A DNA stretch of 64,000 nucleotides, taken from Leucoraja ocellata (Eukaryota). Shown piece by piece: positions 86 through 62,760 of the stretch. Location: assembly GCA_036785375.1 (NCBI GenBank), contig JAWMAR010000026.1, positions 12,152,001-12,216,000 on the forward strand, written 5' to 3'. The notes beneath the pieces were generated by a model. It was not told the DNA's origin. It searched no databases and was given only the letters and a program-made list of their open reading frames with translations. How positions within the stretch are numbered: position 1 is the first letter of the stretch; each line of letters opens with the position of its first letter. Position numbers and translations under genes: made by a program.

Positions 86-290
86 ATGTAGGAAAGAACT
101 GCAGATGCTGGTTTAAACCGAATATATGTTGGAGTAACTCAGCGGGACAGGCAACATCTCTTCGGAGAACGAATGGGTGACGTTTCGGATCGAGGTTTGA
201 AGAAGGGTATCGACCCCAAACGTCACTCATTCCTTCTACCCAGAGATGCTGCCTGCCCCGCTGAGTTACTCCAGCATTTTGTGTCTCTAT
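86..290. mobile_element. Penelope-like element terminal (pLTR) inverted repeat with degenerate hammerhead core
   Basis: Arms ggagtaactcagcgggacaggca / tgcctgccccgctgagttactcc flank tttgaagaagggtatcgaccccaaacgtc. Confidence 0.75.
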
Positions 291-1397
291 ACAAATCAGT
301 TCCATCTGTTGTGCCAACTTGGCGACAGTGAATCGACAACGTTAGATCGGCGTTAATGATGGTAGCTTGCAGAAGCCAAACGATGGAAAATAACAAGCTC
401 TGTTTCTCGCTGTGCTGATTCTACTCATTTACGTCTGCACGTAAAAGGTCCTATATTTGGCATTTATTAACGCGAACTCCTTCCGTACGAGCTGCAGCCG
501 GTGTCTAACTGGACGGGGAGTTAATTGTTGGGTTGCTTTGTCGGTTTATTACAAATCTTTAGAAAGCTTGACTTAATTCACTTAATCATGATAATCTTTA
601 ATGATGAAATAAATGTTACTGATTATTCCCGGACTTTAAATAATTTCATTTGAGATGTTGTTTACTTCTTTTTTCCCCCGTACGGTGCCACATTGGTTGA
701 ATAGACTGACGTTATGCCTGACAAAATTAGTATCAAGCGATTTCAAAAAAAAGAAAAAAGATTTCATTGAAGTCAGCTTGGAATCAGCAGCGATGAGTCC
801 CACATGTTGGAAGACCAAGGTCCTTGGGTTGCAGCAGCACATTGGTCTTATGAGGTTCCAAAGCTGTCGATGTAGAATAGAGGCATGACAGACTCTACCA
901 TCGACGTATTAAAATTGCTCCTACTCTATTTTCTTAGTGATGAGAAACCTGGACATCACACTCCAGCCACTCAAACTAACAGGAATATCATTTAAATATC
1001 TCATCGCAAAACATTTCTAACCACACCTCAGAATGAATTCCTTCCATCTCAGCATTTACCCGTTCTTAGCGATAAATCCATCTGGGAGATTGGCTTAAAA
1101 TTCGGGACCGCTAAATGAATGGGCTGCGCCAATTCATAGCGGCAATGAAAAGGAGTCTCGCAAAGTATCGTACAATGAACAAAATAACCCTCAATACCCA
1201 CGCGTCCCACAAGTGCTACTCGACCTGCTGGTTATGTCCATTGTGCTTTGTTTTATTTTGAATTACTGGTCCCTGTAATTTAAAATTGTTATTACTGGAT
1301 ATTTATCAACAGGCGATTTTTCATATTATCCTCGCGACTAGACTTTACAAATGACATAGAACTGAAAATTGTTTATTTCCCTAACACACACACTCAC

Positions 1398-6800: not shown

Positions 6801-7635
6801 GTGAGGGAGAAGGGGAGTGGGGGTGAAGGGGGGGGGAGAGGAAGGAGGTAGGAGGAAAGAGAGGAAGGGGAGTGGGGTGGGGGGGAGGAAGGGGAGAGGA
6901 ATGGGAAAGGAGAGGGAGAGGGCGAACTTGAACTCAGTGTGTGGGCGACTCGGACGGGGCCGACTGACGAAAGGGCAGCGGTACCTCGCAGCTCTCTGGC
7001 GTCACAATTCCCCATGTCTCTGCGATCAACGGAGGAATCGCAGGTTTCCCAGAGGGAGTAATGGCCGCCAGTGCCACCTTCTCATCGCGCTACCATGCGC
7101 GACGATAACGGCTGCTGCCATGTTCTGCATCAGGCGGGAAGATGGACAGGATTCAAAAGATGGGCCGGTGGCCTCCGTTGAGCGGCACGACCTCCGGATC
7201 CGCAGAAGTTGCTCGTTCTTTCTGCGCCTTTTGAAGAACGGGGAGGGGGAGGGGGAGGGGGGGGGCGGGAGTGGTCGTGGGGGGAAAAGGTGGCGAGAAG
7301 AGGGGGGGGGGGGGGAAGGAGGAAGGGAGCAGGAAGTGGGGAGCGTAACTGGCTCATTGAAAATCTGCGGAGCTAGTCGCAAGGAACAAAGGCATTGTGA
7401 CATCAGGAGCTGGCCAGCGGCGATATTTGTGTTTGTTTGGTGAACAATTTGTGTGAAAATATCGGGCAATAATTGACCAAATTTACAGAGGAGTGGATTT
7501 CTAAAATCATAAGGTCAATCGCTAATGAAATCTGAAAATATTTCCCCGTTTTGGCGTCTGGTTTTCGAGGAGATAACTTTCAAAGGCAAAATGACCCACA
7601 CCCCCACCCACACACCCACACGCACCTTCTTAAGT
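6800..7635 (-). mobile_element. GC-rich non-autonomous DNA element, possibly Helitron-like
   Basis: CpG-rich with G-tracts. The right end on the minus strand (GT-rich, then cgccaaaacgg) resembles the 5' region of the element at 35124. No coding signal. Confidence 0.35.
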
Positions 7636-8948: not shown

Positions 8949-9419
8949 ATATTCACATCAATCTCAAATCAGAGGTCCACTGTGATACCCAATGTGAATC
9001 CATCAGTTTCCTCTTCTGCTCCTATTGATCTTGCGTAACCAAACTTGTCTCCAGGCGACATCTCAAAACACCCACCTTGTCACAATGCAGCCAAGCTCCA
9101 AACAGGAAGGGTTTCACTGCCAGGGGCCAGGTTCTACTCACCTGCACTTAGTTGATCATGGCACGTGTAATAATGTTACAAAGAACCAATTCTTTAGCTT
9201 GTTCAGCAACTGTGATGTGGCAGTTGAGCAATAGTTTCTGGGGTGGTCTCGTGTCTCTAACTAGTTAATTCCATGGGAAAGGAAAGATCCTCGTGACCAA
9301 AATGTGGAGAAGTATCACATGGATTCTGTGACAGAAACATCGGAAATTTCAGCAGGAACATACAGCCATAGTCGTACAGTCTATCTTCGGTTTAAACCAG
9401 CATCTGCAGTTCCTTCCAA

Positions 9420-10974: not shown

Positions 10975-11310
10975 ATAGCGTGAGCCCTTCGGCCCAACTA
11001 GCCCATACCGGCCAACATGTCCCAGCTACACTAGTCCCACCTGCCTGCGTTTTGGCCCATATCCCTCTAAACCTGTCCTATCCATGTACCTGCTAATTGT
11101 TTCTTAAACGTTACGATAGTCCCCTGCCTCATCCACTCTTCTGGGCAGCTGATGGTTATGTGGACGAGCTGCCAGAGGAAGTAGTAGAGGCAAATACAAT
11201 GACAACATTTAAAGGATATTTGGACAGGTCCATGGATTGAAAAGGTTTAAAGGGATATGGGTCAAATGTTGTCAAGAGAATTAGCTCAGGGAGGCACTTT
11301 GGTCAGCATG
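10975..11310. mobile_element. Two CR1-like 3' fragments in opposite orientations
   Basis: cccttcggcccaac...(minus) followed by gacgagctgccagaggaagtagtagaggca...(plus). Confidence 0.6.
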
Positions 11311-13242: not shown

Positions 13243-13471
13243 GATAGACACAAAATGCTGGAGTAATTCAGCGAGACAAGCAGCATCTCCAGAGAGAAGG
13301 AACGGGTGACATGTCGGTACGAGACCCTTCTTCAGACAGTCTGAAGATGGGCCTCGACCTGAAAAGTCACCCAATCCATCTCTCTAGGGATGCTGCCTGT
13401 CACGTTGAGTTACTCCAGCATTTTGTGCCTATCTTCGGTTTAAACCAGCATCCGAAGTTCCTTCCTACACA
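13243..13471. mobile_element. PLE terminal palindrome with two head-to-head hammerhead cores
   Basis: gagacccttcttcagac-a-gtctgaagatgggcctc centre near 13338; ~95-nt inverted arms, right arm extended. Confidence 0.8.
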
Positions 13472-19990: not shown

Positions 19991-20087
19991 GATAAACACA
20001 AAATGCTGGAGTAACTCAGTGGGACAGGCAGAATCTCTGGAGTGAAGGAATGGGTGACATTTCGGGTCGAGAATTCCTTCCTACACA
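19991..20087. mobile_element. PLE terminal repeat, internally deleted
   Basis: gataaacacaaaatgctggagtaactcag...tttcgggtcgaga joined to ttccttcctacaca. Confidence 0.7.
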
Positions 20088-22978: not shown

Positions 22979-23432
22979 GGTACACAAAAATGCTGGAGAA
23001 ACTCAGCGGGTGCAGCAGCATCTATGGAGCGAAGGGAATAGGCGACGTTTCGATCCAAAACCCTTCTTCAGACTGATGAGGGGGGAGAAGGAAGGAAAAA
23101 GGGAGGAGGAGGAGCCTGAGGGCGGGGGGGATGGGAGGAGACAGCTCGAGGGTTAAGGAAGGGGAGGAGACAGCAAGGGCTAGCAAAATTGGGAGAATTC
23201 AATGTTCATGCCATCAGGACGCAAGCAACCCAGGCGGAATATGAGGTGCTGTTCCTCCAATTTCCGGTGTTGCTCACTCTGGCAATGGAGGAGACCCAGG
23301 ACAGAGAGGTCGGATTGGGAATGGGAGGGGGAGTTGAAGTGCTGAGCCACCGGGAGGTCAGGTAGGTTATTCCGGACTGAGCGGAGGTGTTCGGCGAAAC
23401 GATCGCCCAACCTCCGCTTAGTCTCCCCGATG
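22979..23432 (-). mobile_element. Penelope-like element 3' end: GIY-YIG endonuclease C-terminus, 3' UTR and hammerhead-bearing pLTR
   Basis: IGETKRRLGDRFAEHLRSVRNNLPDLPVAQHFNSPSHS...RKLEEQHLIFRLGCLRPDGMNIEFS* (stop at 23180). Hammerhead-like core at 23071-23044. Confidence 0.9.
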
Positions 23433-23496
23433 TTAGTCTCCCCGATGACAGAAGTGAAAGTCTCAAACAGGATGGCTCTGTAGGAATGAAACTGAA

Positions 23497-23660
23497 GAGA
23501 CACACAAAATGCTGGAGTAACTCAGCAGGACAGGCAGCATCTCTGGAGAAAAGGAATAGGTGATGTTTGGGGTCGAGACACCTTCTTCAGAAACAGTCCC
23601 TGTTTGTTCTCTCCAGAGATGCTGCCTGACCCGCTAGGTTACTCCAGCTTTTTGTGGCTC
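23497..23660. mobile_element. PLE terminal palindrome
   Basis: Inverted arms gctggagtaactcagc...cagcatctctggaga / tctccagagatgctgcc...gttactccagc. Confidence 0.75.
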
Positions 23661-24414
23661 TCTATGATAGGATTGCTCTGCTGTGAGCTGACCTCGACTT
23701 GATGGGCTGAATGACCTGCTTCGGTTTGAATCAGTCATCAACATGTAAATGATAAGGGGGGTCCAGTGGACACTTACGCTGCACAGTACAATCCGGTAAG
23801 TTACAGTTGCCAGGGGTTGATTTTGTAATAGGCAATTGAATGAAACCACTGAATGAAATGCGAGTGGATTAGTACTGGGAGGTAGGAATGCACAGGGAAA
23901 TATCTTAGTGGCCGCTGAACTGAACCACAATATAGATTTATAGATCTGTCAGCTTGCTGAATTCATCCAGCAAAACAAACAGTTAAAAAAAGAAGCTAGT
24001 TCTGAAAGGTCTGGTTTTTGTTGCAGGTTGAACTCCTTGAGCAGGGTCAGAGGTTGGGGTCAGGGTCACATAGCCTGGCCCAGGACCCAGGGGATTAGGG
24101 TGGGCAACTTGCCATCAAAGATTGCCGTCAGTGACAGTGCCTTGACCCCCTTCAATGAACAATTAGCGGAGGTTTCAGCTTACTCCGGATTGAAAGTTGA
24201 TGTAGAGTGTGAAAGGGCAGAGGTGGGGAGTGGGCTGCAGCTGGGCGTCACAGGGCACCAGTTGAACTCAGCACCCTGTCCTCCAGATACTGCCGAGACG
24301 TGGCGAGTGGGTGAGGAGCAGGGGAGGGGTAGTGGACCACAGGAGAAGAAACGCCGGAGCAGAGGACAGAGTTGTATCGATTGTATCGAGAATGGCTTGA
24401 TTGTAATCACGTAT

Positions 24415-25170: not shown

Positions 25171-25995
25171 TTTAATCAGAACAGGACGAGGGTTGGAACT
25201 CACCATAAACTAAGGCAACAGAGCAGAGGGACCGACAACAAATGGAGAGGGTAACTAGGATGAGAAGAAAGATTTCTCACATGGTCGGACAAGCGGGATA
25301 CCATTTGTGATGCTAATGTGGTCCCTTGTTCTGTGGTGACAGAGACACAAGGCAGACGGAACTCTGGGTAAGGTGGGCTTGAGGTCGGGAGGTTGACGAA
25401 CATTGAAAATAAATGAGTTTGGTGGTTTATAAGGAGGGAGGAGCTAAGGCTTGAGTTTGGAAAAGGGAGATTCGGAGGAGGGAGTAACCCATAATGGCAC
25501 AAACCACGTAGAGATGAGGATATGATTTTAGTTAGATGGTCAGGGGGCACGGAATCAATGATTGTGATCTGAGTGACATTAATCATCACAAACTCCATGC
25601 AGCTGCAGGAGATATGGAAGCAAAGAATCAGGTCAGCAGGGTGTGGTGTAAACCAGGGGCCAGCTTTACAGTCCAGGAGCTGTGGCAGGGGCAGCTTTGT
25701 AGCAGCGGTGATGAACATGGTTCAGCCTCAGCAGATGGTAAAATAGTGACACAGACTGTGTGCAATTCTAGAATTACTAGAGATTCGAGAAATCAATATT
25801 CTTGTTGCTGGATTGTAAGCTGCCCAAGCAAAATATTCCATCGGTGTCTAGATTTCAATTTAGCGCAGCTATACCAGTTAGACCAGAAAAAAATAAATGA
25901 TTATTTCCTTTGTCATATCCATTTAGTGTTATGTTGGAGAAACATAACTAGGGGTCGTGGGATTGTGGAGGACAGCAGCTCACCGAATGGATGAA

Positions 25996-26237
25996 GATAG
26001 ACACAAAATGCGAGAGTAACTCAGTGGGACAGGCAGCATCGCTGGAGAAAAGGAATGGGTGACGTTTTGGGTCGAGACCCTTCTTCAGATAAGAGTGAAG
26101 AAGGGTCTTAAGAAAAGTCTCGGCCCGAAACATCACCCATTTCTTCTCTCCAGAGATGCTGCCTGCTCCGCCGAGTGACCCCAGCAGTTTGTGTCTATTT
26201 TTGGTTTAAACCAGCATCTGCAGTTCCTTCTTACACC
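25996..26237. mobile_element. PLE terminal palindrome
   Basis: Minus-strand core CTGAAGAAGGGTCTCGACCCAAAACGTC at 26088-26061, second partial core on plus, extended right arm. Confidence 0.8.
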
Positions 26238-27219
26238 AAATGGATGAATGCGGCTGAGGGCCTTCAGTTTTGTCATCGTCAGGTGGCTCAATGGTGCCAC
26301 CTGCAGGCAGCACAGGTGCAAGGATTTGAAGAGTTTTACGGAGTACCAATTTATTTGCAGTTATCAATACATAATCTGGTAAAACTGCATAATTACACAG
26401 GTCCAAAGTACAGAAGGAAGGCTTCTCTCCCACTATATAGACTCATTGACAGAGAAGTAGATGATAAATACATTAGATTCTCTGAATGCTGAGAGCCTGA
26501 GATTTATTGTGAGCAGCCCCACAAGGGATCAATACATAATGCTTAATTTCATTGAGGCAAAGGCTTCTATTTTTATTAGTTTGCGAGACTGACAAGGAAA
26601 GGTAATTTGCAAATGTGCACCTGCTGGATAATAAATTGTTATTTTACTCTGAAATCAATCGCAATTAACAGAAGCGGGAAGATCTCGTTGCATCGAGCAT
26701 AATTGCTTTGAAATGTTCACAAAAATGCAGCAAATTAAAAGTATGAAGCTTCAAGCTGGCAGCTGAGGAAGGCCAGATGTCAGCCGCCGACACTCCCTGG
26801 CCTGGTGGATAGCAAGGGAGATGGTGGCTGCTTCACTGACTGATGCTGGAAGTATTGGCGTTTATCACTGCCCTAAGCTATGCCCAAGCTGCGCAAACAA
26901 ACAACAACATCACTCAGCGTCATCTCGCACAACATGGCTACCATGTGAAGGCGCTTTGTGCTCTCACTCTGGGCAGTATGGGCATCAGCCTGCAGTCAGC
27001 TGGCACCCAGTGGGTAAGCTTCCAAAATGGCACCCAACCCAGGCGACTATTTGCAAGCCACAGAAGCAGATCTACAATCACATATTACAATCGCTCCACA
27101 CTCTTAAATCTCTACTCCCACAGCACCATTTCTTACTTTATTCCCTTGTCATGTATCTATACACTGTAACGGCTCGATTGTAATTATATATTGTCTATCT
27201 GCTGACTGGATAGCATGCG

Positions 27220-27520
27220 AGGGCCAGTGCAAATTGGAGGAACAGCATCTCATATTTCGCTTGGGTAGTTTACACCCAGCACTGTGAACATTGACTTCTC
27301 TTATTTTAGATAGCCCTTGCTTTCTCATTCCTTTCCCTACCCCTTCCCAGTTCTCCCATAAGTCCTACTGCCTCTGCCTACCTCCTTTCTTTTTCTGCCC
27401 CTCCCCACCCCCCTCCCCGACATCAGTCTGAAGAAGGGTCTCGACCCGAAACGTCGCCTATTCCTTCTCTCCATGGATGCTGCCTCACTCGCTGAGTTTC
27501 TCCAGCATTTCGTGTCAACC
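27220..27520 (+). mobile_element. Penelope-like element 3' end (GIY-YIG tail plus pLTR)
   Basis: aaattggaggaacagcatctcatatttcgcttggg (KLEEQHLIFRLG), followed by the hammerhead core and pLTR. Confidence 0.85.
27428..27455 (+). ncRNA. Minimal type-I hammerhead ribozyme core within the PLE pLTR
   Basis: CUGAAGA-A-GGGUC UC GACCC-GAAA-C-GUC: conserved CUGANGA and GAAA boxes, stem II hairpin, palindromic ACGU stem III, GUC cleavage triplet. Stem I is only ~2 bp locally. Confidence 0.65.
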
Positions 27521-38769: not shown

Positions 38770-39330
38770 CAGAGTTTAACGGTAGTGAAATGGATAACAA
38801 TGACTGGAGTGTGACGGGAAGGGAGTGTGTGCAAACATTGTGTTTCAGTGTCGTTTAAGAGGCTTTTAGATCGGCACATGAATATGTGAGCAGAAGAGAT
38901 TCATAACTTCATAAGTTATGGGAGCAGAATTAGGCCATTTGGCCCATCAAATCTACTCTGCAATTCAATCATAGCCGGTCTATCTTTCCCTCTCAATGCA
39001 TTCTCCAGCCTTCTCCCCATAACCCCTGACGTCCGTACTAGTTAAGAATCTATCAATCCCTGCTGTAAAAAATATCTATTGACATCCCCCACAGCCTTCA
39101 CAGAATCTGTGGAATCTTTGGCAATGAATTCCACAGATTCACCTCCCTCTGACTGTAGAAATTCCTCCTCATCTCCTTTCTAAAGGTATGTCTATTTATT
39201 AAGAGGTTATGGCCTCTGGTCCTAGATGTTTAAACTAAATAGTTTAATTTAGTATCATGTTCGTCAGAGACAGCATTGCTGAAGGGCCTGTTCCTGTGCT
39301 GAATTGTTCTATGTTTTATGTTCCATAAAG
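38770..39330. mobile_element. Nested CR1-like 3' ends (minus copy ~38900-39225 inside a plus copy)
   Basis: ggagcagaattaggccatttggccc (minus tail) interrupts gtgagcagaagagatt...agtttaatttagtatcatgttc. Confidence 0.65.
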
Positions 39331-39435
39331 GTTAACCTGCTAAACCTTTATGGAACATAAAATATAGAACAGTTGAGCGTAGGAAAGGGCCCTTCAGCAA
39401 TGCTGTCTCTACTGAACATTATGCTAAATTAAACT
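39241..39435. repeat. Fold-back inverted duplication (~92-nt arms, ~9-nt loop)
   Basis: agagacagcattgctgaagggcc...atgttccataaaggtt / aacctttatggaacat...ggcccttcagcaatgctgtctct. Confidence 0.85.
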
Positions 39436-39659
39436 CTAACTGTATTAAAGTCTAAATAGGAAAAAAGAGGTGAAATAGAACTAAAGAGGCTGCACAAAAG
39501 AATTATTTGGCGATTGACCTGATGGCAATTAGAGATGTGGGTACAAGATGTCTCGGGCTGGAACTCAATATTTCAAGGAACCCAACATTTCAGAGGGACA
39601 GGTAGGAAGGAGCTCTGTTAATAAAAATGCATGTTTCCACTCTGAAAATCTTAAGATTG

Positions 39660-39890
39660 TGATCATAAGATCATATCTGATAGGAGCAGAATTAGGCCAT
39701 CTGGCCCATCATGTCTACTCCACCATTCAATCATGGCTGATCTATCTCCTCTTCAACCCCATTCTCCTGCCTTCTCCCCATAACCTCTGACACATGTATA
39801 AATCAAGAATCTATCTATCTCTGCCTTAAATATATTCAGTGACGGCCTCCACAGCCTACTGTGGCAAAGAATTCCACAGATTCACCACCC
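39660..39890 (-). mobile_element. CR1-like 3' end
   Basis: ggagcagaattaggccat...gaattccacagattcaccaccctc. Confidence 0.8.
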
Positions 39891-39943
39891 TCATGACATT
39901 GACATCCTCAAGACTAAAAACAAGACATTAAGTGAGTTTGAAG

Positions 39944-40131
39944 GTACACAGAAATGCTGGAGAAACTCAGCGGGTGCAGCAGCATCTATGGAGCGAAGGA
40001 AATAGGCAACGTTTCGGCCGGAAACGTTGCCTATTTCCTTCGCTCCATAGATGCTGCTGCACCCGCTGAGTTTCTCCAGCTTTTTTGTGTACTTTCCATT
40101 TTCCAGCATCTGCAGTTCCTTCTTAAACACA
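39944..40131. mobile_element. Near-perfect PLE terminal palindrome (39944-40092) plus ~38-nt tail
   Basis: gtacacagaaatgctggagaaactc...caacgtttc-ggccg-gaaacgttg...gagtttctccagcttttttgtgtac. Confidence 0.9.
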
Positions 40132-40189
40132 TTAAATGAGCTTGTCTGGAGGAAAGGAACAGCAAGGGATGGAAGGTCAACGTCGGGGC

Positions 40190-40515
40190 TGCTAACAGGA
40201 GATAAGCTGTAGGACAGAACATATATCCAAAAATAATGGAAGACACGGTGATAATTGTGGGTGACTTTAATCTTCGTATAGATTAGATAAATCAAATTGT
40301 CAAAGATAGCCGTGAGGAGAAATTCAGAGTTGGTTTTGTGGCATCTTCTTGGAATACATACACAGTGGAAACATCCAAGGAACAGGCTCCTTTAAGATAA
40401 GGTCATGGGAAATTGGTCATTAAAGATCTCACAGTAAATGATCCTCTGGGGAAGAGTAATGATAACATGATAGAATTTCACATTCAGTTTGAGTGCGAAA
40501 ACCTTATGTCTGAAA
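40190..40515 (+). mobile_element. CR1-like AP-endonuclease remnant
   Basis: gtgggtgactttaat (VGDFN) and ctggggaagagtaatgataacatgatagaattt (LGKSxDNMIEF-like). Confidence 0.6.
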
Positions 40516-40970: not shown

Positions 40971-41113
40971 CACAGGTAGCTGTGGGTCTGGGAACAGGAT
41001 TATGGTGTGAGCTGGGAGTGGGGTCTGTAATGCAGACAGAACACGGTGGGAATGGAAAGGGCAGTGCCGATGGAATCTGACACTTGCAGTGCCTCACACA
41101 ATCAAACTGAAAA

Positions 41114-41266
41114 TAGATACAAAATGCTGGAGTAATATCTCTGCAGAGAAGGAATGGGTGACGTTTCAGGTCGAGACCCTTCTTCAGAAGTCTGTCCCAT
41201 CCCGCTGAGTTACGCCAGCGTTTTGTGTCTATCTTTGGTTTAAACCATCATTTGCAGTTCCTTCCA
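41114..41266. mobile_element. PLE terminal palindrome (deleted) with an intact minus-strand hammerhead core at 41187-41160
   Basis: CTGAAGAAGGGTCTCGACCTGAAACGTC on the minus strand. Confidence 0.75.
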
Positions 41267-41892: not shown

Positions 41893-42570
41893 TGCAGGAA
41901 GGAACTGTAGATGCTGGTTTACACAAAAGATAGACACAAAATGCGAGAGTGACTCAGCGGGTCAGGCAGCATCTCTGGAGAAAAGGAATAGGTGATGTTT
42001 CAGGTCGAGGCCTTTCTTCAGACTGAGAATCAGGGGGGAGGAAAACTAGAGGTGTGAAAAGGTATAGAATAAATAAAAGACAGCACTGATGGCCAAAGAG
42101 CCCACAATGGTCCATTGTTGGCTGTGGAAGAGGTGATAGCGAAGGGATATGAACAGTGAAACTAGCAGGACAACTGGGGTGGTGGAGGGATGGAGCGAGA
42201 GGGAATATAAGGGTTACTTGAAATTAGAGGTCAATATTCGTGCTGCTGGGTTGTAAGCTGCCCAAGTGAAATATGATGTGCTGTTCCTCCACATTGCATG
42301 TGGCCTCACTCTGACAGTGGAGGAGGCCCAGGATCTCGATGGGAATGGGAATGGGAGTTAAAATGTTTGGGGAACGCGTAGGCCGAGGCGGATTGAGCAG
42401 AAGTATTCAGTGAAACGATCGCCGAGTCTGCGCTCAGTCTCGCTGATATATAGAAGTCCAAACCGAGAATAATAGATACAGTAGACGAGGTTGGAGGAGG
42501 TGCAAGTGAACCTCTGCCTCACCTGAAAGGACTGTCGGGGCCCCTAGTTTGAGTCGAGGGAGGAGGGAGT
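41893..42570 (-). mobile_element. Penelope-like element: GIY-YIG domain, 3' UTR and long pLTR
   Basis: Minus translation GPRQSFQVRQRFTCTSSNLVYCIYYSRFGLLYISETERRLGDRF (VY...YI motifs); hammerhead-like core ~42021-41994. Confidence 0.85.
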
Positions 42571-42799
42571 CGCTAAGATATGTGTGTTGTTCCATTTATT
42601 GGCCGCTGTAAATTTCCCCTGTTGTGTAGATGAGTGGGAGAATCTGGGGGGGGGGGGGGGGGGGGGGGGGAGTTGGTGAGAATGTGGGGGCGATCAAACA
42701 AAATGTTAACTGTGTAGCCTTAGAGCTAATGTGGGGTTGAGAGACAGTGTGGAGCTGATGGGCAAAAGGACTTGTTTCTGTGTTTTGTTTCTCTATAAG

Positions 42800-42930
42800 A
42801 CTGACACAGAGAAGTGGAGTAACGCAGCAGGTCCGGCAGCATCTCTGGAGAAAAGGAATAGGTGATGTTTCGCATGAAGGCACTTTTTCTGTCTTTGGTT
42901 TAAACCAGCAGCTGCAGTTCCATCCTACAC
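42800..42930. mobile_element. PLE terminal repeat remnant
   Basis: ggagtaacgcagc...ggcagcatctctggag plus tail ggtttaaaccagcagctgcagttc. Confidence 0.65.
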
Positions 42931-43996
42931 ACTTTGTCTGTCCATGACTGATTCTTGCTGGCACTGCCCTGGGCAGATTGGCTCACGACTTCAACAGCAG
43001 TAAAAGACAAGAGAATATCAGACATAATGATGGAAATGGGAGAGCATCACAAAGGCATAACAGTGGATCTTCTGTTAATTATAGTAAATTGACCTAATCT
43101 GCACATGAACATTAGGTTAATTAAGAAGTAATTTTGCATCCACCTCGACCCGTAAATCCAACCTTTATAATGTGTTGAGGGCATAATTATGCCTTTTGCA
43201 ATACCCTATTCGTAGATCATGCTAATGACTTCCTGCTCGCATCCGTTTTAATTAGAAATGTGTTTTCCCTTTTCAATCCAAATCTGTTTTTGCTAACCCA
43301 GGTGACTTGGCAGATCCATTATTGTACTAAACCTTGAGATATGTGGCATGCCGCAAAATGATTGTAAAAGTGACGGTTCTGTATGGAAGGGCTGAATTTA
43401 CTCAGAATGGACACAGACAAATGTAGAGACTATAAAAGTGGTTTAAGATGCGTGCATACAAATTCTCCCTTTTCATCGCAAGTACATTGTGATCACAGGA
43501 ACAGGGTGAGTGTTTAAACAGGATAACAGAAATGGCATTGACATTCTTAGACAATACACGTATAACGTGTTAGACTGAGAACACCAATTGACTCAGTACT
43601 GAGTTATACAAGTACAGGTGTACCTCCCTTAATGCTGCCCCCTATAGTGCTGCTTTGCTCCAGCACTCTTTCATTTTGCAGCATTATTTTTCCCATCTCG
43701 CCTTGGTTTTAATGATTGCTGGTGTGTTAATTTGCAACATGGGGGTGCTTTTGAATTTGCTTCCATGTCAGAGGGACCGTGGTCAGTCAGAGCCGCTGTG
43801 TCGGGTGTGCGGAGGTGTTAAAGGATCGCTGTGACAGGCTCCTTCTGCAGGGTGAGAAAGTGTGATTTTCCCCAGCCACTGGAGGAGTGCAAGCTGTTGG
43901 ATTTGCCGGCTTGTGTGGGGCTGGTGGAGTCTGAGAAAGGGTGATTCAATGATTCAATGATACTTTATTGTCACATGAACCGAGGTACAGTGAAAC

Positions 43997-44705
43997 AAGT
44001 GGCAGAAATCACTATCAAAACATGGGGGGGGGGGGGGGGGGGGACACACAATTTATTGGCGCCCGCACACGCATGCGCACACACGCGAGGCTTCGGCCGT
44101 GGGCCCTGTGGACGATAAGATCGGGAACTGTCCTGGTTGGTACCGACTCGGAACTCCAGCAACAGAAGCTTCGTCCACCCGGAATCGTGGGGCTTCACTC
44201 GGCCCGTTCACGGGGTTTCATCACCCGGCGCGGCTTAAAACTGACCGTGGAATCTTCCATCGCCCGGCGGGGGCTTCAACATCGGGAACCTCTATCGTCT
44301 CGACGCAGTAATTTGACTGCGGGGTGATGGAAGATCCCACGGCCGATTTTAAACCACGCCGGGCCCGGGCGATGAAAGACTCCGTGAACAGTCCAATTCA
44401 AGCTCCGCTCTATGATCTTTGCTCCACCAGGACTTCTCCCTCCTCCAATCATCGCGCTGAATCGTCATGGCACGCCCACCACCCCCCCACTGCCTGCTGA
44501 CCGACGTCTCTCTCATCCAATCGGCGCCCTGGATCATCAGTCCCACCCCCACTGTCTCGTGGAATGCGGGGATTTTTAATAGATTTTTCACCGAATTTCA
44601 AAATCCGGATTACAAATCATGGGGGGGATTGTCCCCCCACCTCTCAAAACATGGAGGGGACGTCCCCCCCCGTCCCCCCCGTCCCCCCCGGGATTCCCGC
44701 CCATG
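43997..44705. mobile_element. hAT-like non-autonomous DNA transposon inserted into a LINE-tailed element (43950-45200, minus)
   Basis: Flanked by agtgaaac (43989-43996) and agtgaaat (44706-44713), an 8-bp TSD with 1 mismatch. Right end GGGATTCCCGCCCATG. tcaaaacatgg motif near both ends. CpG-rich. Confidence 0.6.
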
Positions 44706-49430: not shown

Positions 49431-49834
49431 GTTGAATTTCAGAATTTTTTCTGGCTCTTCAGCACCGGCAGAATTTTGATTCTATCTGAGGAGATAGATT
49501 TGAGATGAAGAATGAAAGATTGGTGCAAGTCGTAAATTAAACGGCTGGTTCATGAATTACTAAACTCAACGTTGAGGCTGGAAGGTTGGAATGTGCTTGG
49601 TTGGAAGATGCGGTGCTGTTCCTCAAGTATGTATTGAGTTTCATGGGAAGAGTTGGGATAGTGTGATTGTCGTGGATGAGGACCATTCAAGTCAAGTCAA
49701 GTCGAGTTTATTCATCACATACACAGACGAGATGTGCAGTGAAATGAAAAGTGGCAATGCTCGCGGACTTTGTGCAAAAAGACAAACAAACAAACAACCA
49801 AACAAACTACAAACAGAATGGAACAGAATCAAGT

Positions 49835-55209: not shown

Positions 55210-56030
55210 ATGTCAAGCGTGTTTAATTGTCATATATACCAATAATGGAACAATGAAATTCTTATTTTCAGCAGTTTTAAGGGCCTGTCCCACGAACATG
55301 CAACTGCGGGCCGGCAGGCCGTTGCCGTGCGGAATTTTTAAACACGGTCAGTTTTTTGGAGCCCCGCGCGATGTCGGGACCAGCTCCACACAACTCCATA
55401 CGGCTCCAGCGATCGAAGTGGGACCGGCCCTGCGAGACCGTACGGCTCAAGTGACCACGTTAGGTCGCGCTTGCCTCATGCAGGCGCATGCTGGTGGGGC
55501 CAGCCCTTTAGGTCGCGCTTGCCGCATGGAGTCGCATGCTCGTGGGACAGGCCCTTAACAGGCCTGTAAACACAATTTGCACCGATAAATATAATAATAA
55601 TTAAAAAATGTGATAAATTAATTATTGTAATATTAGTGCAAAAAACTACAGATATCCGCAGTGGAACTAAGGACATAGTCCTTAGAAATTCACGGTTGCT
55701 GAAATTAACGTTGTGTATCTTCAAGAGTTTGATGGTTGCTGGGGAGAAACTATTCTTGAAGCTTGTGGCCATGGTTTTCTAGCTCCTGTACCTTCCCAAT
55801 AGGAGGAGTGAAATGGAATCATCGTCAGGACGGTGTAGTCTTTGATGATATTGGCTGCCGTTTTGTGGCAGCGCCTGCTATAGATCCCTTCACTGATGTG
55901 GAGGTCAGTACCTGTGATGGATCGGGCATTGTCTACCACCCTCTGTAATCTTCTACATTCCTGGGCATTCGAGTTGCTGAACCAAGCCATGATGTAACCA
56001 GTCATTGTGCTCCAAAGGTGCTCCAATAGC
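55210..56030 (-). mobile_element. Rex1/Babar-like LINE 3' end (host of the MITE)
   Basis: TGYIMAWFSNSNAQECRRLQRVVDNARSITGTDL...AANIIKD. Confidence 0.8.
55281..55554. mobile_element. 274-bp MITE with ~24-bp TIRs and TTAA target-site duplication (Kolobok- or Harbinger-like)
   Basis: TTAA|GGGCCTGTCCCACGAACATGCAAC ... GTCGCATGCTCGTGGGACAGGCCC|TTAA; interrupts a LINE 3' UTR. Confidence 0.85.
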
Positions 56031-57093: not shown

Positions 57094-57307
57094 TACACAA
57101 AATGCTGGAGTAACTCAGCGGGACAGGCCGCATCTCTGGAGAGAAGGAATGTGTAATGCTTCTTCAGTTGAGACCCTTCTTCCAACTGAAGAAGGGTCTC
57201 GACCCGAAACTTCACCCATTCCTTCTAGCTAGAGATGCTGCCTGTCCTGCTCTGTTACTCCATAATTTTGTGTCTATCTTCTGTTTAAACCAGTATCTGC
57301 AGTTCTT
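57094..57307. mobile_element. PLE terminal palindrome with hammerhead core at 57186-57213
   Basis: CTGAAGAAGGGTCTCGACCCGAAACTTC; inverted arms, right arm extended. Confidence 0.8.
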
Positions 57308-57645
57308 ATAAATAACCTTTGCATTCAGCATGAGATAACCTTAAAAAGGACAACACGGACACCAAACTCAAGTACTGCAGATGCTGGGCATTGAAATGCT
57401 CCTTCCATTCTGCTGAATATTTCCAGCATTTTCTGTTTTTATTTCAATATTCCAAATCCTAGTTATCAATGGAAGAATGAATACTAATGGACAGATCATC
57501 ATGCAGCATAACCATCTGTTTTTATATTTGCAATTGTAGTTACCCCTTAAATTTCACTGGCAGCAGAAGTGAAGACAGTCAGATGGCATGAAGAGCAAAC
57601 AGTGGTCTGGGATGGGTTAAATTAACAGCAAAACATTCCTTTTCC

Positions 57646-57832
57646 TGAAGGTACACAAAAAGCTGGAGAAACTCAGCGGGTGCAACAGCATCTATGGAGC
57701 GAAGGAAATAGGCAACGTTTCGGCCCGAAACGTTGCCTATTTCCTTCGCTCCATCGATGCTGCTGCACCCGCTGAGTTTCTCCAGCTTTTTTGTGTACCT
57801 TCGATTTTCCAGCATCTGCAGTTCATTCTTGA
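57646..57832. mobile_element. Near-perfect PLE terminal palindrome, same subfamily and centre as 39944
   Basis: gaaggtacacaaaaaagctgg...caacgtttcg-gcc-cgaaacgttg...ccagcttttttgtgtaccttc plus tail. Confidence 0.9.
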
Positions 57833-59739
57833 ATTCCTTTTCCTGAGCCTGTTTCCAGCTAGCAGAAGTTAGCCTATTAAAGGAATCCATTATTGAGCAG
57901 CGTCGGGGGTTAGGATTTCCATCAAACCTCGCTGTCACGGAGCACTATCTAGGAAATTGAGCGAGGGCAGGTGCTCCGTAATCTATCTGCAGTTCGAGCG
58001 GCAGCTTCAATACCTGTTACGTGTTGTGTGATTGCGACCGTCACCTCCAATCTTCCCCTCCCCTCCCCGCCGGTGTCCCATTATGCAACGTGAGAGACAA
58101 TTGTGGCTCTGTGTGCCTGACTGACTTCAGACTGACACCAATTAATGTTCCAGGAGCAGCACTGCTCTTTACCCAGACTATTTCTATTTCAGTACCGGCT
58201 TTTACCTCCCTCCCCACCCACCATGGCAGAATCACCTTCTTTTAATTGTCAATTTTTAGTAGACTCCTTACGATGCATTGAAACAGACTGTGTATTCCTT
58301 CAATGGTGATTATTGATAGATGGTATCTCTCTGGATATTAAGGGAATCCAGCAATATGGGGGAGTGCAAATGACAGATCAGACTTGAATGATAGAACAGG
58401 CACAAGGGGTAGAATGTCCTCTTCCTGCTAATGCCACGACATGAATCCATGTCACCAGCACCTCCACAGTCCCAGCCTCAAGTAGCCAGGCTTCAGGGTG
58501 GCTGGAGAACTTTGATGTTGGTGCATGCCAGGTGCTGGTGGCAAGGTTCAGCATGGACTTGGTGGGCTGAAGGGCCTGTTGCTGGGCTGTGTAGTTCAAC
58601 GACTTATGTAGTGGTCAGAGGGAAGAGACTGCAGCAGGATGGATTCCCTCGGGGTAACAAGTCAAGAGCTGACTATTACATTCATTAATCCCTAAAGCTC
58701 CAGAGCCAATTCTAGCTCCACACTTTGAGCCACAGATCCATACAGAGCAGAAACAGGCCATCTAGCCCACCATGTACATGCTGGCCACCAAGTTCCCATC
58801 CACAACACTGCCACATACAAACACTTGGTCCACACTCTTCTGTGCCTTGGAGATCCAAGTGCCCACCTGGATATTTAAGAGTTGTGATAGTTTCTGCCTC
58901 CACCACCCTCTCAGGCAGAGAATTCCAGATTCAGCAACCATAAAGTTATCGTTGTATATAACTTTGTTCCGGGTACCAGAGGTTGCACTCCACAGTATGG
59001 TGAATTACATGCCCCAGCGTAGTATGAGAATCAGCCCTCTCTCAACGTCAGTGAATCTGACCATGATGAAATTATTGCCTATGGTGTCTGGTAATCAGTT
59101 CCCATGCGTTTGACGGTGGACTAGTGAGCAAAAACAAAAGAAGAGCAACTGGGAGAGCTCAGCATGTTGGGGAGCATCTGTGGAGAGAAATGGACAGTCG
59201 ACATTTCAGTTTGGGACCCTTCATCAAGATAGTGACACCATCTGGAATAGTGACATCCTTGATATGCACTGAGTCCCAAAAAACGGTGAGCCCGTGCTTT
59301 ATTTTTAAAACACGCACCAAGTTACCCACCTCCTGTTCTCTGATATCCTGGGAGTCCAGAATGAACACTATTTCTGGTAATCGCTCCCCACCCCTCAACA
59401 TTTGACAAACAGGCATTTTGTATCAAGTGGCAATGCTTCCCAAACTTTGAAGATGACAGCTTCAGCAAGTGATACAGTGTTACCAGTCTTTCATTTGGAT
59501 CAATGAAGAAAACATTTGATTATAATTTCAAATTCATAAAAGTACAAGATCACATCCTTGTCTGAATAGATTATTAAATGTACCAGTGTGGAAAACACCT
59601 GACAGACTCACCAATTAATCCCCTCATTCTTTCCAGCCTATGCTTCCCCCCCCCCATATTTGTCCAGTTCCTGACTGAAGACCAACACTGTTTCCACTTC
59701 AACCTTGTTTGGGTGTTCAAACGCACAATCATCAAGGGT

Positions 59740-61543: not shown

Positions 61544-61676
61544 GACTGAAGAAGGTTCTTGACCCGAAACGTCACCCATTCCTTCTTTCCAGAGATGCTG
61601 CCTGTTCCGCTGAGTTACTCCAGCTTTTTGTCTGTATATTCAATTTAAACCAGCATCTGCAGGTCCTTCTTACCCA
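61544..61676 (+). mobile_element. PLE terminal repeat starting at the hammerhead core (61546-61573)
   Basis: CTGAAGAAGGTTCTTGACCCGAAACGTC plus long arm; flanked by a cataatcaaagact direct repeat. Confidence 0.8.
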
Positions 61677-62359: not shown

Positions 62360-62760
62360 TGGGCAGCACGGTGACACAGCTGGGAGAGCTGCTGCCCCAC
62401 AGCTTACATGACCTGAGCTCAAACCTGACCTTAGGTGCCCTCTGTGTGGAGAAGGGTCTCGACCCGAAGCGTCACCCATTCCTTCTCTCCATAGATGCTG
62501 CCACACCCGCTGAGTTACCCCAGCTTTTTGTGTCTACCTCCAGTTTATTCCCACATCCCAATGACATGCTAGGAAGTTAATGGGCTACTGTAAGGTCCAC
62601 ACACAAAATGCTGGAGTAACTCATCGGGACAGGCAGCACCCCCCGAGAGAAAGAATGGCCTGCAGCCTGTCCCACTGGGTTACCCCAGCATTTTGTGTAT
62701 ATCTTCAGTTTAAACTAGCATTGCAGTTCCTTCCGACACATACTGTAAGGTACATCTTGA
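62360..62760 (+). mobile_element. Old V-SINE carrying two PLE-terminus insertions (62450-62540, 62599-62741)
   Basis: SINE head gggcagcacggtgacacagc interrupted by agaagggtctcgacccgaagcgtc... and acacaaaatgctggagtaac.... Confidence 0.6.

Follow-up and report, generated by a model that had tools for sequence, protein, structure and literature searches.

Within Adineta vaga, the EN+ Penelope-like elements (PLEs) Pen2a and Pen3a have been described as head-to-head inverted insertions of the terminal repeat, or pLTR (PMC3846280), an arrangement for which a general scheme is drawn in Fig. 2 of PMC8557442. In Pen2a the inverted and direct pLTRs share a 15-bp overlap, the target-site duplication (TSD) measures 9 bp and a 31-bp tail is optional (PMC3846280). 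Palindromes at inverted PLE junctions were read in 2013 as products of self-priming (PMC3846280), and a survey presents the inverted 5'-truncated copy with a one-sided tail as typical of PLEs while calling its mechanism undefined (PMC8557442). An inverted pLTR with a tail, a TSD and a palindromic junction is already published PLE anatomy, and the self-priming idea is not new.

Biochemical information is available for Poseidon of Anolis carolinensis, whose protein, a predicted dimer, was described in vitro as cutting and extending both target strands, with two reverse transcription (RT) start sites on the RNA that bracket the tail and with uncleaved RNA as the main template; inverted copies are not treated in the main text of that paper (PMC11167929). 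The pLTRs of metazoan PLEs carry minimal hammerhead ribozymes composed of CUGANGA, a bulged base, stem II, GAAA, a palindromic CG and UC, and dual motifs on opposite strands, 100-700 bp apart, are described for Schistosoma (PMC4209133). Non-LTR retrozymes are short non-coding PLE-derived hammerhead repeats arranged as head-to-tail tandems with a hammerhead in each unit, and were reported in the sole chondrichthyan sampled (bioRxiv 10.64898/2026.07.22.740005).

The window analysed here is a 64-kb stretch of the genome of the skate Leucoraja ocellata, in which BLAST detected more than 20 segments of one repeat family, including 11 two-part copies (2 young, 9 old). As in the Adineta PLEs, these place an inverted 5'-truncated pLTR beside a direct one, with a 30-40-nt tail at one end, a TSD around the whole and a palindrome at the junction. 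Unlike the Adineta PLEs, the skate inserts are pLTR only (the young insert measures about 185 bp and has no ORF) and very dense (11 two-part copies in 64 kb), their TSDs are mostly 11-15 bp long (14-19 bp in the young pair), and the junction palindrome is formed by hammerhead stem II and GAAAC. The non-LTR retrozymes are likewise short, non-coding, PLE-derived and hammerhead-bearing; an assignment to them was rejected, the skate copies being dispersed and either single or head-to-head rather than head-to-tail units with a hammerhead each.

The hairpins are short head-to-head insertions of a PLE pLTR; the PLE identity and the hammerhead had been proposed in the earlier note and are supported by the linear copies. 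Three long linear copies retain the C-terminal end of a protein upstream of the repeat. The best-kept fragment, an 83-aa frame upstream of a young-type pLTR, gave no Pfam match alone, and shares 93% identity with a predicted protein of Leucoraja erinacea, 65-74% with the other shark, skate and ray proteins heading its 41 matches, and 67% with residues 369-450 of the relative P0004, where the Pfam GIY-YIG domain scores above its cut-off. The same C-terminus occurs in two further window copies, and the family thus carries the GIY-YIG endonuclease end next to the pLTR expected of an EN+ PLE. All window copies are 5'-truncated and without RT; an RVT_1 domain lies upstream of GIY-YIG in the relatives P0004 (below cut-off) and P0025 (above cut-off). 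A CxxxxCxxC linker motif of the Neptune/Nematis type, instead of the Poseidon type, was found in the relatives P0004, P0006, P0025 and P0039 and not in the window; a CX2-5CxxC linker before a CCHH GIY-YIG domain marks the Neptune clade together with RT phylogeny, and the motif is shared with Nematis (PMC8557442).

Positions within the repeat are numbered from the C of CTGA (1), which places GAAAC at 21-25, the predicted cut after 28, the body end at 96 and the tail at 97-130. The linear copies contain a minimal hammerhead (CTGAAGA, a bulged A, stem II, GAAA, CG and TC) that fits the motif of PMC4209133, and at 27428 the core, stem II and palindromic CG are intact. The core pattern matched six copies in the window; a seventh match, at 49462, is unrelated. 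Rfam returned 17 weak matches, none of them a hammerhead and all below the gathering score, and two linear copies folded whole had no unusual stability (z -0.37 and +0.31). A degenerate body motif had no match among viral contigs, whereas metagenome contigs gave 25 loci and prokaryote genomes 20; no alignment exceeded 37 nt in any of these 45, and they were taken as chance. In a search of sequencing runs, part of 39500-40500 was present in 20 of the 24 listed and at least half of its words in 4, under two organism labels, a result on which no conclusion was based. Feature coordinates are collected in Table 1.

Table 1. Coordinates, within the window, of the two young palindromes and of other copies of the PLE family.
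Feature	Position	Strand	Remarks
Left TSD copy, first young palindrome	39922..39940	+	16/19 match to 40126-40144
Inverted pLTR arm, first palindrome	39940..40015	-	GAAAC (position 21) to tail-less body end
Junction, first palindrome	40011..40025	+	Hammerhead stem II/loop II/GAAAC near-palindrome, positions 11-25, 1 base changed, without CTGAAGA box
Sense pLTR arm, first palindrome	40011..40096	+	Positions 11-96
One-sided PLE tail, first palindrome	40097..40125	+	About 30 nt
Right TSD copy, first young palindrome	40126..40144	+	
Left TSD copy, second young palindrome	57635..57648	+	14/14 match to 57833-57846; final 2 bases overlap element end
Inverted pLTR arm, second palindrome	57647..57723	-	Tail-less end
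Junction, second palindrome	57717..57731	+	7+1+7 inverted repeat GTTTCGG-C-CCGAAAC
Sense pLTR arm, second palindrome	57717..57802	+	Positions 11-96
One-sided tail, second palindrome	57803..57832	+	
Right TSD copy, second young palindrome	57833..57846	+	
Old two-part copy (126)	86..293	-	Inverted arm to position 0, sense arm from ~13; TSD weak
Old two-part copy	13243..13469	+	Join at CTGA box; TSD 14/15
Mirror-form copy (20072)	19996..20086	-	Inverted 13-14-nt tail end on tail-less sense body; TSD 13/14
Old two-part copy (23496)	23481..23668	-	Internal deletion in tail; sense arm begins at CTGA, inverted arm reaches GAAAC; TSD 11/12
Old two-part copy	25993..26233	+	Filler and short duplication at junction; TSD 14/15
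Old two-part copy (41135)	41107..41264	+	Deletions in both arms; 8-bp TSD match
Old two-part copy (42872)	42794..42932	+	Full inverted arm, sense part scarcely beyond tail; TSD weak
Old two-part copy	57095..57309	+	Complex junction of templated look; TSD weak
Old two-part copy (62601)	62597..62740	+	Join inside body; 11-bp exact TSD
Single sense copy (61548)	61546..61674	+	CTGA to tail end; 14-bp exact TSD
Linear 5'-truncated young-type PLE	22979..23453	-	Endonuclease C-terminus 23183-23431, 3' UTR, hammerhead core 23044-23071, tail-less end; 12-bp exact TSD
Linear PLE 3' end	27215..27520	+	Endonuclease tail, pyrimidine tract and CAG, intact minimal hammerhead, tail-less end; no clear TSD
Linear decayed PLE 3' end	41893..42620	-	Endonuclease remnant, pyrimidine tract and CAG, hammerhead, tail-bearing end; no clear TSD

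Two near-perfect hairpins of about 150 nt with nearly the same centre had been noticed at 39944-40092 and 57646-57802, and both were recovered. The first is made of 76-nt inverted repeats at 96% identity (39940-40015/40021-40096) and the second of 67-nt inverted repeats at 97% (57657-57723/57725-57791), the latter extending by eye to about 57647-57801 across a 1-nt indel; the two arms mismatch at 3/73 and 2/72 body positions, respectively. Folding of 39940-40131 gave -149 kcal/mol (z = -22), and 0 of 200 shuffles were equally stable. The centres, GTTTCGGCCGGAAAC and GTTTCGGCCCGAAAC, are 1 base apart and correspond to stem II/GAAAC with the CTGAAGA box missing from both, as first read. A tail of about 30 nt is found on the right side only of each palindrome, with no left counterpart. 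Each has its own flanking direct repeat, and the two are therefore separate insertions; the independence claimed for them holds in this sense, their TSDs and flanks being different, but does not extend to how the palindromes were formed.

As the CUGAAGA box is absent, the young palindromes would not self-cleave. An active hammerhead in them was rejected, positions 1-10 being missing from both arms of both copies, and they differ from the metazoan minimal hammerheads in lacking CUGAAGA and in matching no Rfam hammerhead model. A MITE or other DNA transposon was dismissed on account of the tail, which lies at one end outside the inverted repeat, and the long, variable TSDs, and a miRNA precursor was dismissed in that all Rfam miRNA matches fall far below the gathering score and reflect the hairpin only. 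Inverted PLE structures are reported to trouble short-read assembly (PMC8557442), yet the arms differ from each other, TSDs flank both palindromes, the tail is one-sided and the same build recurs in the nine old, decayed copies, and we give hardly any credence to an assembly artefact.

The one-tail arrangement is general: each of the 11 two-part copies has a tail at one end and a tail-less end, at about positions 88-100, at the other, although the tail is internally deleted in 23496 and only its end is left in 20072. Further single copies were located at 9379, 11314, 16945, 62450 and 63064. Among the nine one-part copies whose 3' end could be classed, four stop at the tail and five at the body end, and one of each end type has an exact TSD (61548 and 22969). 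The tail end and the body end each work alone as insertion ends, as expected if they correspond to the two RT start sites seen in vitro (PMC11167929). TSDs, of variable length as in EN+ PLEs, were scored for 19 elements of the family, whose limits were placed by eye with a slack of 12 nt; a score of at least 9 was obtained for 9/19 elements versus 5/342 mismatched flank pairs, and at least 8 for 8/11 two-part copies, with 126, 42872 and 57095 weak. At the junction of 57095 (57140-57200) filler bases are present twice, by eye, in inverted form, which resembles templated insertion from end-joining repair.

Of 28 short segments, 15 have their 5' end between -3 and +5, 8 between 11 and 21, and the remaining 5 at other positions, counts that were hand-assigned with edges uncertain by about 3 nt, in windows chosen after looking and against an alignment reference starting at -4, so that binomial values are rough, and that leave aside three upstream-extending long copies and the short or divergent fragments 22790, 29201, 30712 and 60664. 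The clustering of junctions in the ribozyme region, also claimed earlier, is borne out by these ends. Three old copies (13243, 25994 and 57095) had been described as folding back just 5' of CTGA, and their inverted arms do end near it, at about positions 0, 0 and +3. Ribozyme cleavage was rejected as the cause of the junctions, only 1 of the 28 ends falling near the cut site (27-31). Copies extending 5' of the cut site point to uncleaved RNA as the template, in agreement with the in vitro results (PMC11167929).

A pyrimidine tract (20/24) followed by CAG stands directly before TCTGAAG in the two long copies scored (27387-27427 on the forward and 42022-42062 on the reverse strand), and most short copies begin at TCTGAAG, just after the place of this tract. 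It looks like a splice acceptor, which may account for the pile-up of 5' ends. In the Penelope of D. virilis, an intron is reported to end at the 5' end of helix I (PMC4209133).

In both young copies the sense arm starts at position 11 and meets the inverted arm at position 19-21. The young sequence at positions 11-25, GTTTCGG-C-CCGAAAC, is a 7+1+7 inverted repeat that spans stem II and GAAAC and is absent from the old subfamily. When 3249 pairs of start points over positions 11-67 were mapped, on a reference whose positions 11-20 were taken from the palindrome at 57646 itself, the observed junction was the sole one with a 7-base overlap and the longest self-complementary site in the young stretch mapped. 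That positions 11-25 are native sense sequence is supported independently by the linear young-type copy, which matches 12 of the 15 bases, and by peptides of outside copies. Outside the window, VSARN is encoded at the junction site in P0043 and P0046 (two of the four outside proteins with an exonised copy) and KKGFARN in a third, while in another outside copy, read in antisense, the element continues through VSGR and is left at about position 13; the peptide of the palindromic junction occurs in 0 of 5 outside peptide-level copies, exonised copies being a biased sample. The computed self-dimer of the cDNA reaches -18.6 kcal/mol at the young centre versus -4.7 for the old type. This strong self-annealing in the young and weak self-annealing in the old subfamily would explain why the junctions of the nine old two-part copies all differ. 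The shared centre thus likely derives from a native 15-base near-palindrome in the ribozyme region of the young subfamily, where two separately primed cDNAs would anneal, and the junction point is set by sequence whichever step uses the palindrome.

As a side observation, the predicted host proteins P0043, P0045 and P0046 (NmrA-like and galactosyltransferase-like in Leucoraja erinacea, and one PLC-beta-like) include translated pieces of the young pLTR, which suggests exonisation or an error of the gene models. The predicted exons of P0043 and P0046 appear to start at about position 10, after another AG.

We propose that the palindromes are formed anew at each insertion, with both nicked target strands priming at the element's two RT start sites and the cDNAs joining by microhomology, a reading to which we give an even chance of being right. 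The tail end would be the start site for one target strand and the body end that for the other, and both cDNAs would usually stop in the hammerhead region, at CTGA or at the 3' foot of stem II. Since the two cDNAs are antisense to the RNA, pairing of their 3' ends would require a self-complementary site. In the young subfamily this would be stem II/GAAAC, on which independent events would converge, whereas in the old subfamily the site is weak and junctions would scatter. The cDNA ends would anneal at the palindrome and be filled in, and ribozyme cleavage would have no part in setting the junction. In L1 twin priming, both target strands prime and the cDNAs join by microhomology, leaving an inversion inside the TSD. 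The L1 cDNAs copy adjacent, non-overlapping parts of the RNA, whereas those of the skate overlap over the body, which would call for two RNAs or one displaced cDNA. Our search of the open-access literature found no paper applying twin priming to PLEs or describing these elasmobranch palindromes.

The two-part copies differ in how far their arms reach, and this bears on whether a second cDNA is needed. The inverted arm is contained in the sense arm in 7/11, which fits snap-back as well as two-ended priming, whereas it reaches further 5' than the sense arm in 126, 42872 and 62601. A single cDNA folding on itself cannot give sequence that it has not copied, so these three and 20072 need a second cDNA or a later deletion. 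All four are old and could have undergone such a deletion; 41135 and 23496 do have internal ones. Snap-back at the ribozyme hairpin was one of the explanations first offered for this locus: the cDNA would stop after the native hairpin, fold and copy its own body, and the product would be resolved where body meets tail, a step for which the endonuclease may be responsible. Self-priming on an antisense template is a published proposal (PMC3846280); a hairpin of 6 bp with a loop of 3 nt (-3.5 kcal/mol) can form at the end of the young cDNA, and the filler bases at the 57095 junction recur inverted, by eye. Nevertheless, a single cDNA that simply snaps back does not yield 4/11 copies unless a deletion followed, and the stop at the body end, which is accounted for by two-ended priming, would need a cause of its own. 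Nor do the two arms of old copies share private changes in excess (3 departures from the majority in common, permutation p = 0.42, in 6 copies, a test blunted by their 17% decay). We regard snap-back as quite unlikely. On the other side, two-ended priming must reckon with only two young palindromes, for which recurrence is indistinguishable from inheritance, with old junctions that hold fillers and, by eye, little clear microhomology, and with a one-tail rule that is predicted equally by snap-back and by a master element.

Inheritance was addressed by comparing arms within the window, as the earlier note had suggested, and the old copies gave neither an excess of privately shared changes nor clustering by arm. 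The mean distance within a copy was 0.172 (6 copies) versus 0.174 between copies (183 pairs), and pairings of tail arms, of inverted arms and of mixed arms gave 0.20, 0.19 and 0.19, although the 17% decay of these copies limits the power of such tests; ongoing gene conversion between old arms is not supported, and there is no sign of a common template. Among the young arms (2-4% decay), every pairing differs at 2-3 of 72-73 sites. A single palindromic master is not supported for the old subfamily, in which each of the nine two-part copies has a junction of its own and no clustering by arm is seen. As regards the two young copies, we consider it unlikely that one or more palindromic pLTR-only source elements, copied in trans, passed on one junction. 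The junction is the same, the left ends agree within about 1 nt, and the young tail arms differ at only 2/73 body positions and share a T where the inverted arm at 39940 and the linear copy have A, a site that leans towards arm-wise inheritance or two RNA templates rather than one template. Against such a source, the young arms are about equidistant, the T/A site has other residues in tail-bearing copies elsewhere (P0043 and P0044 have H), a few bases distinguish the tail ends of the young copies, and none of the five outside copies has the junction peptide. A source element may also use the same two-ended priming, with cDNA running past the centre complementing its partner over the whole arm.

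The shared junction could also have arisen by loss rather than by joining. Rearrangement at the centre is a known property of long perfect palindromes, and longer palindromes joined near CTGA could have lost their centre between two 7-base direct repeats, giving the same junction twice. The same 7-base word does occur in both arms of a longer palindrome, and old copies show internal deletions and fillers. However, the product would still be a near-perfect palindrome, so that the gain in stability is small, and both copies are young; a central deletion seems to us decidedly improbable.

Other features were recorded in the window. An unrelated palindrome lies 500 bp from the first young one, at 39241-39435, with two 93-nt arms joined tail to tail that are 87% alike and 71-80% like five other window copies; the sequence resembles a CR1-type LINE 3' end, and the arrangement suggests a local inverted duplication. 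Inverted pairs from different repeat families are found at 44224-44392, 55254-55581, 58549-58783 and 11051-11266. On the reverse strand, an immunoglobulin V-set exon (Pfam 4e-9) lies at 1384-1821, and an open frame at 7026-7514 with an Ala/Arg-rich stretch after a Met at its end is, by eye, a candidate first coding exon with a transit peptide.

The formation of tandem and inverted PLE ends was called undefined in a 2021 survey (PMC8557442), and the skate family offers a dense natural test of it: the copies are short, their TSDs can be read, the 3' ends are of two defined kinds, and one junction palindrome distinguishes the subfamilies. Such copies also carry a warning for annotation tools, as they mimic MITEs or miRNA hairpins. 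If transcribed, the young palindromes are predicted to give dsRNA of about 75 bp; in Drosophila, siRNAs matching inverted Penelope regions have been reported (PMC3681739). An unlikely reading is that the young subfamily spawned a self-propagating palindromic mini-retroelement, a ribozyme-dead pLTR hairpin of about 185 bp copied in trans by two-ended priming, in which overshooting cDNA would anneal along the whole partner arm and regenerate the palindrome more efficiently than linear templates do. If this is true, the way in which PLEs build inverted ends would be extensively recorded in skate genomes.
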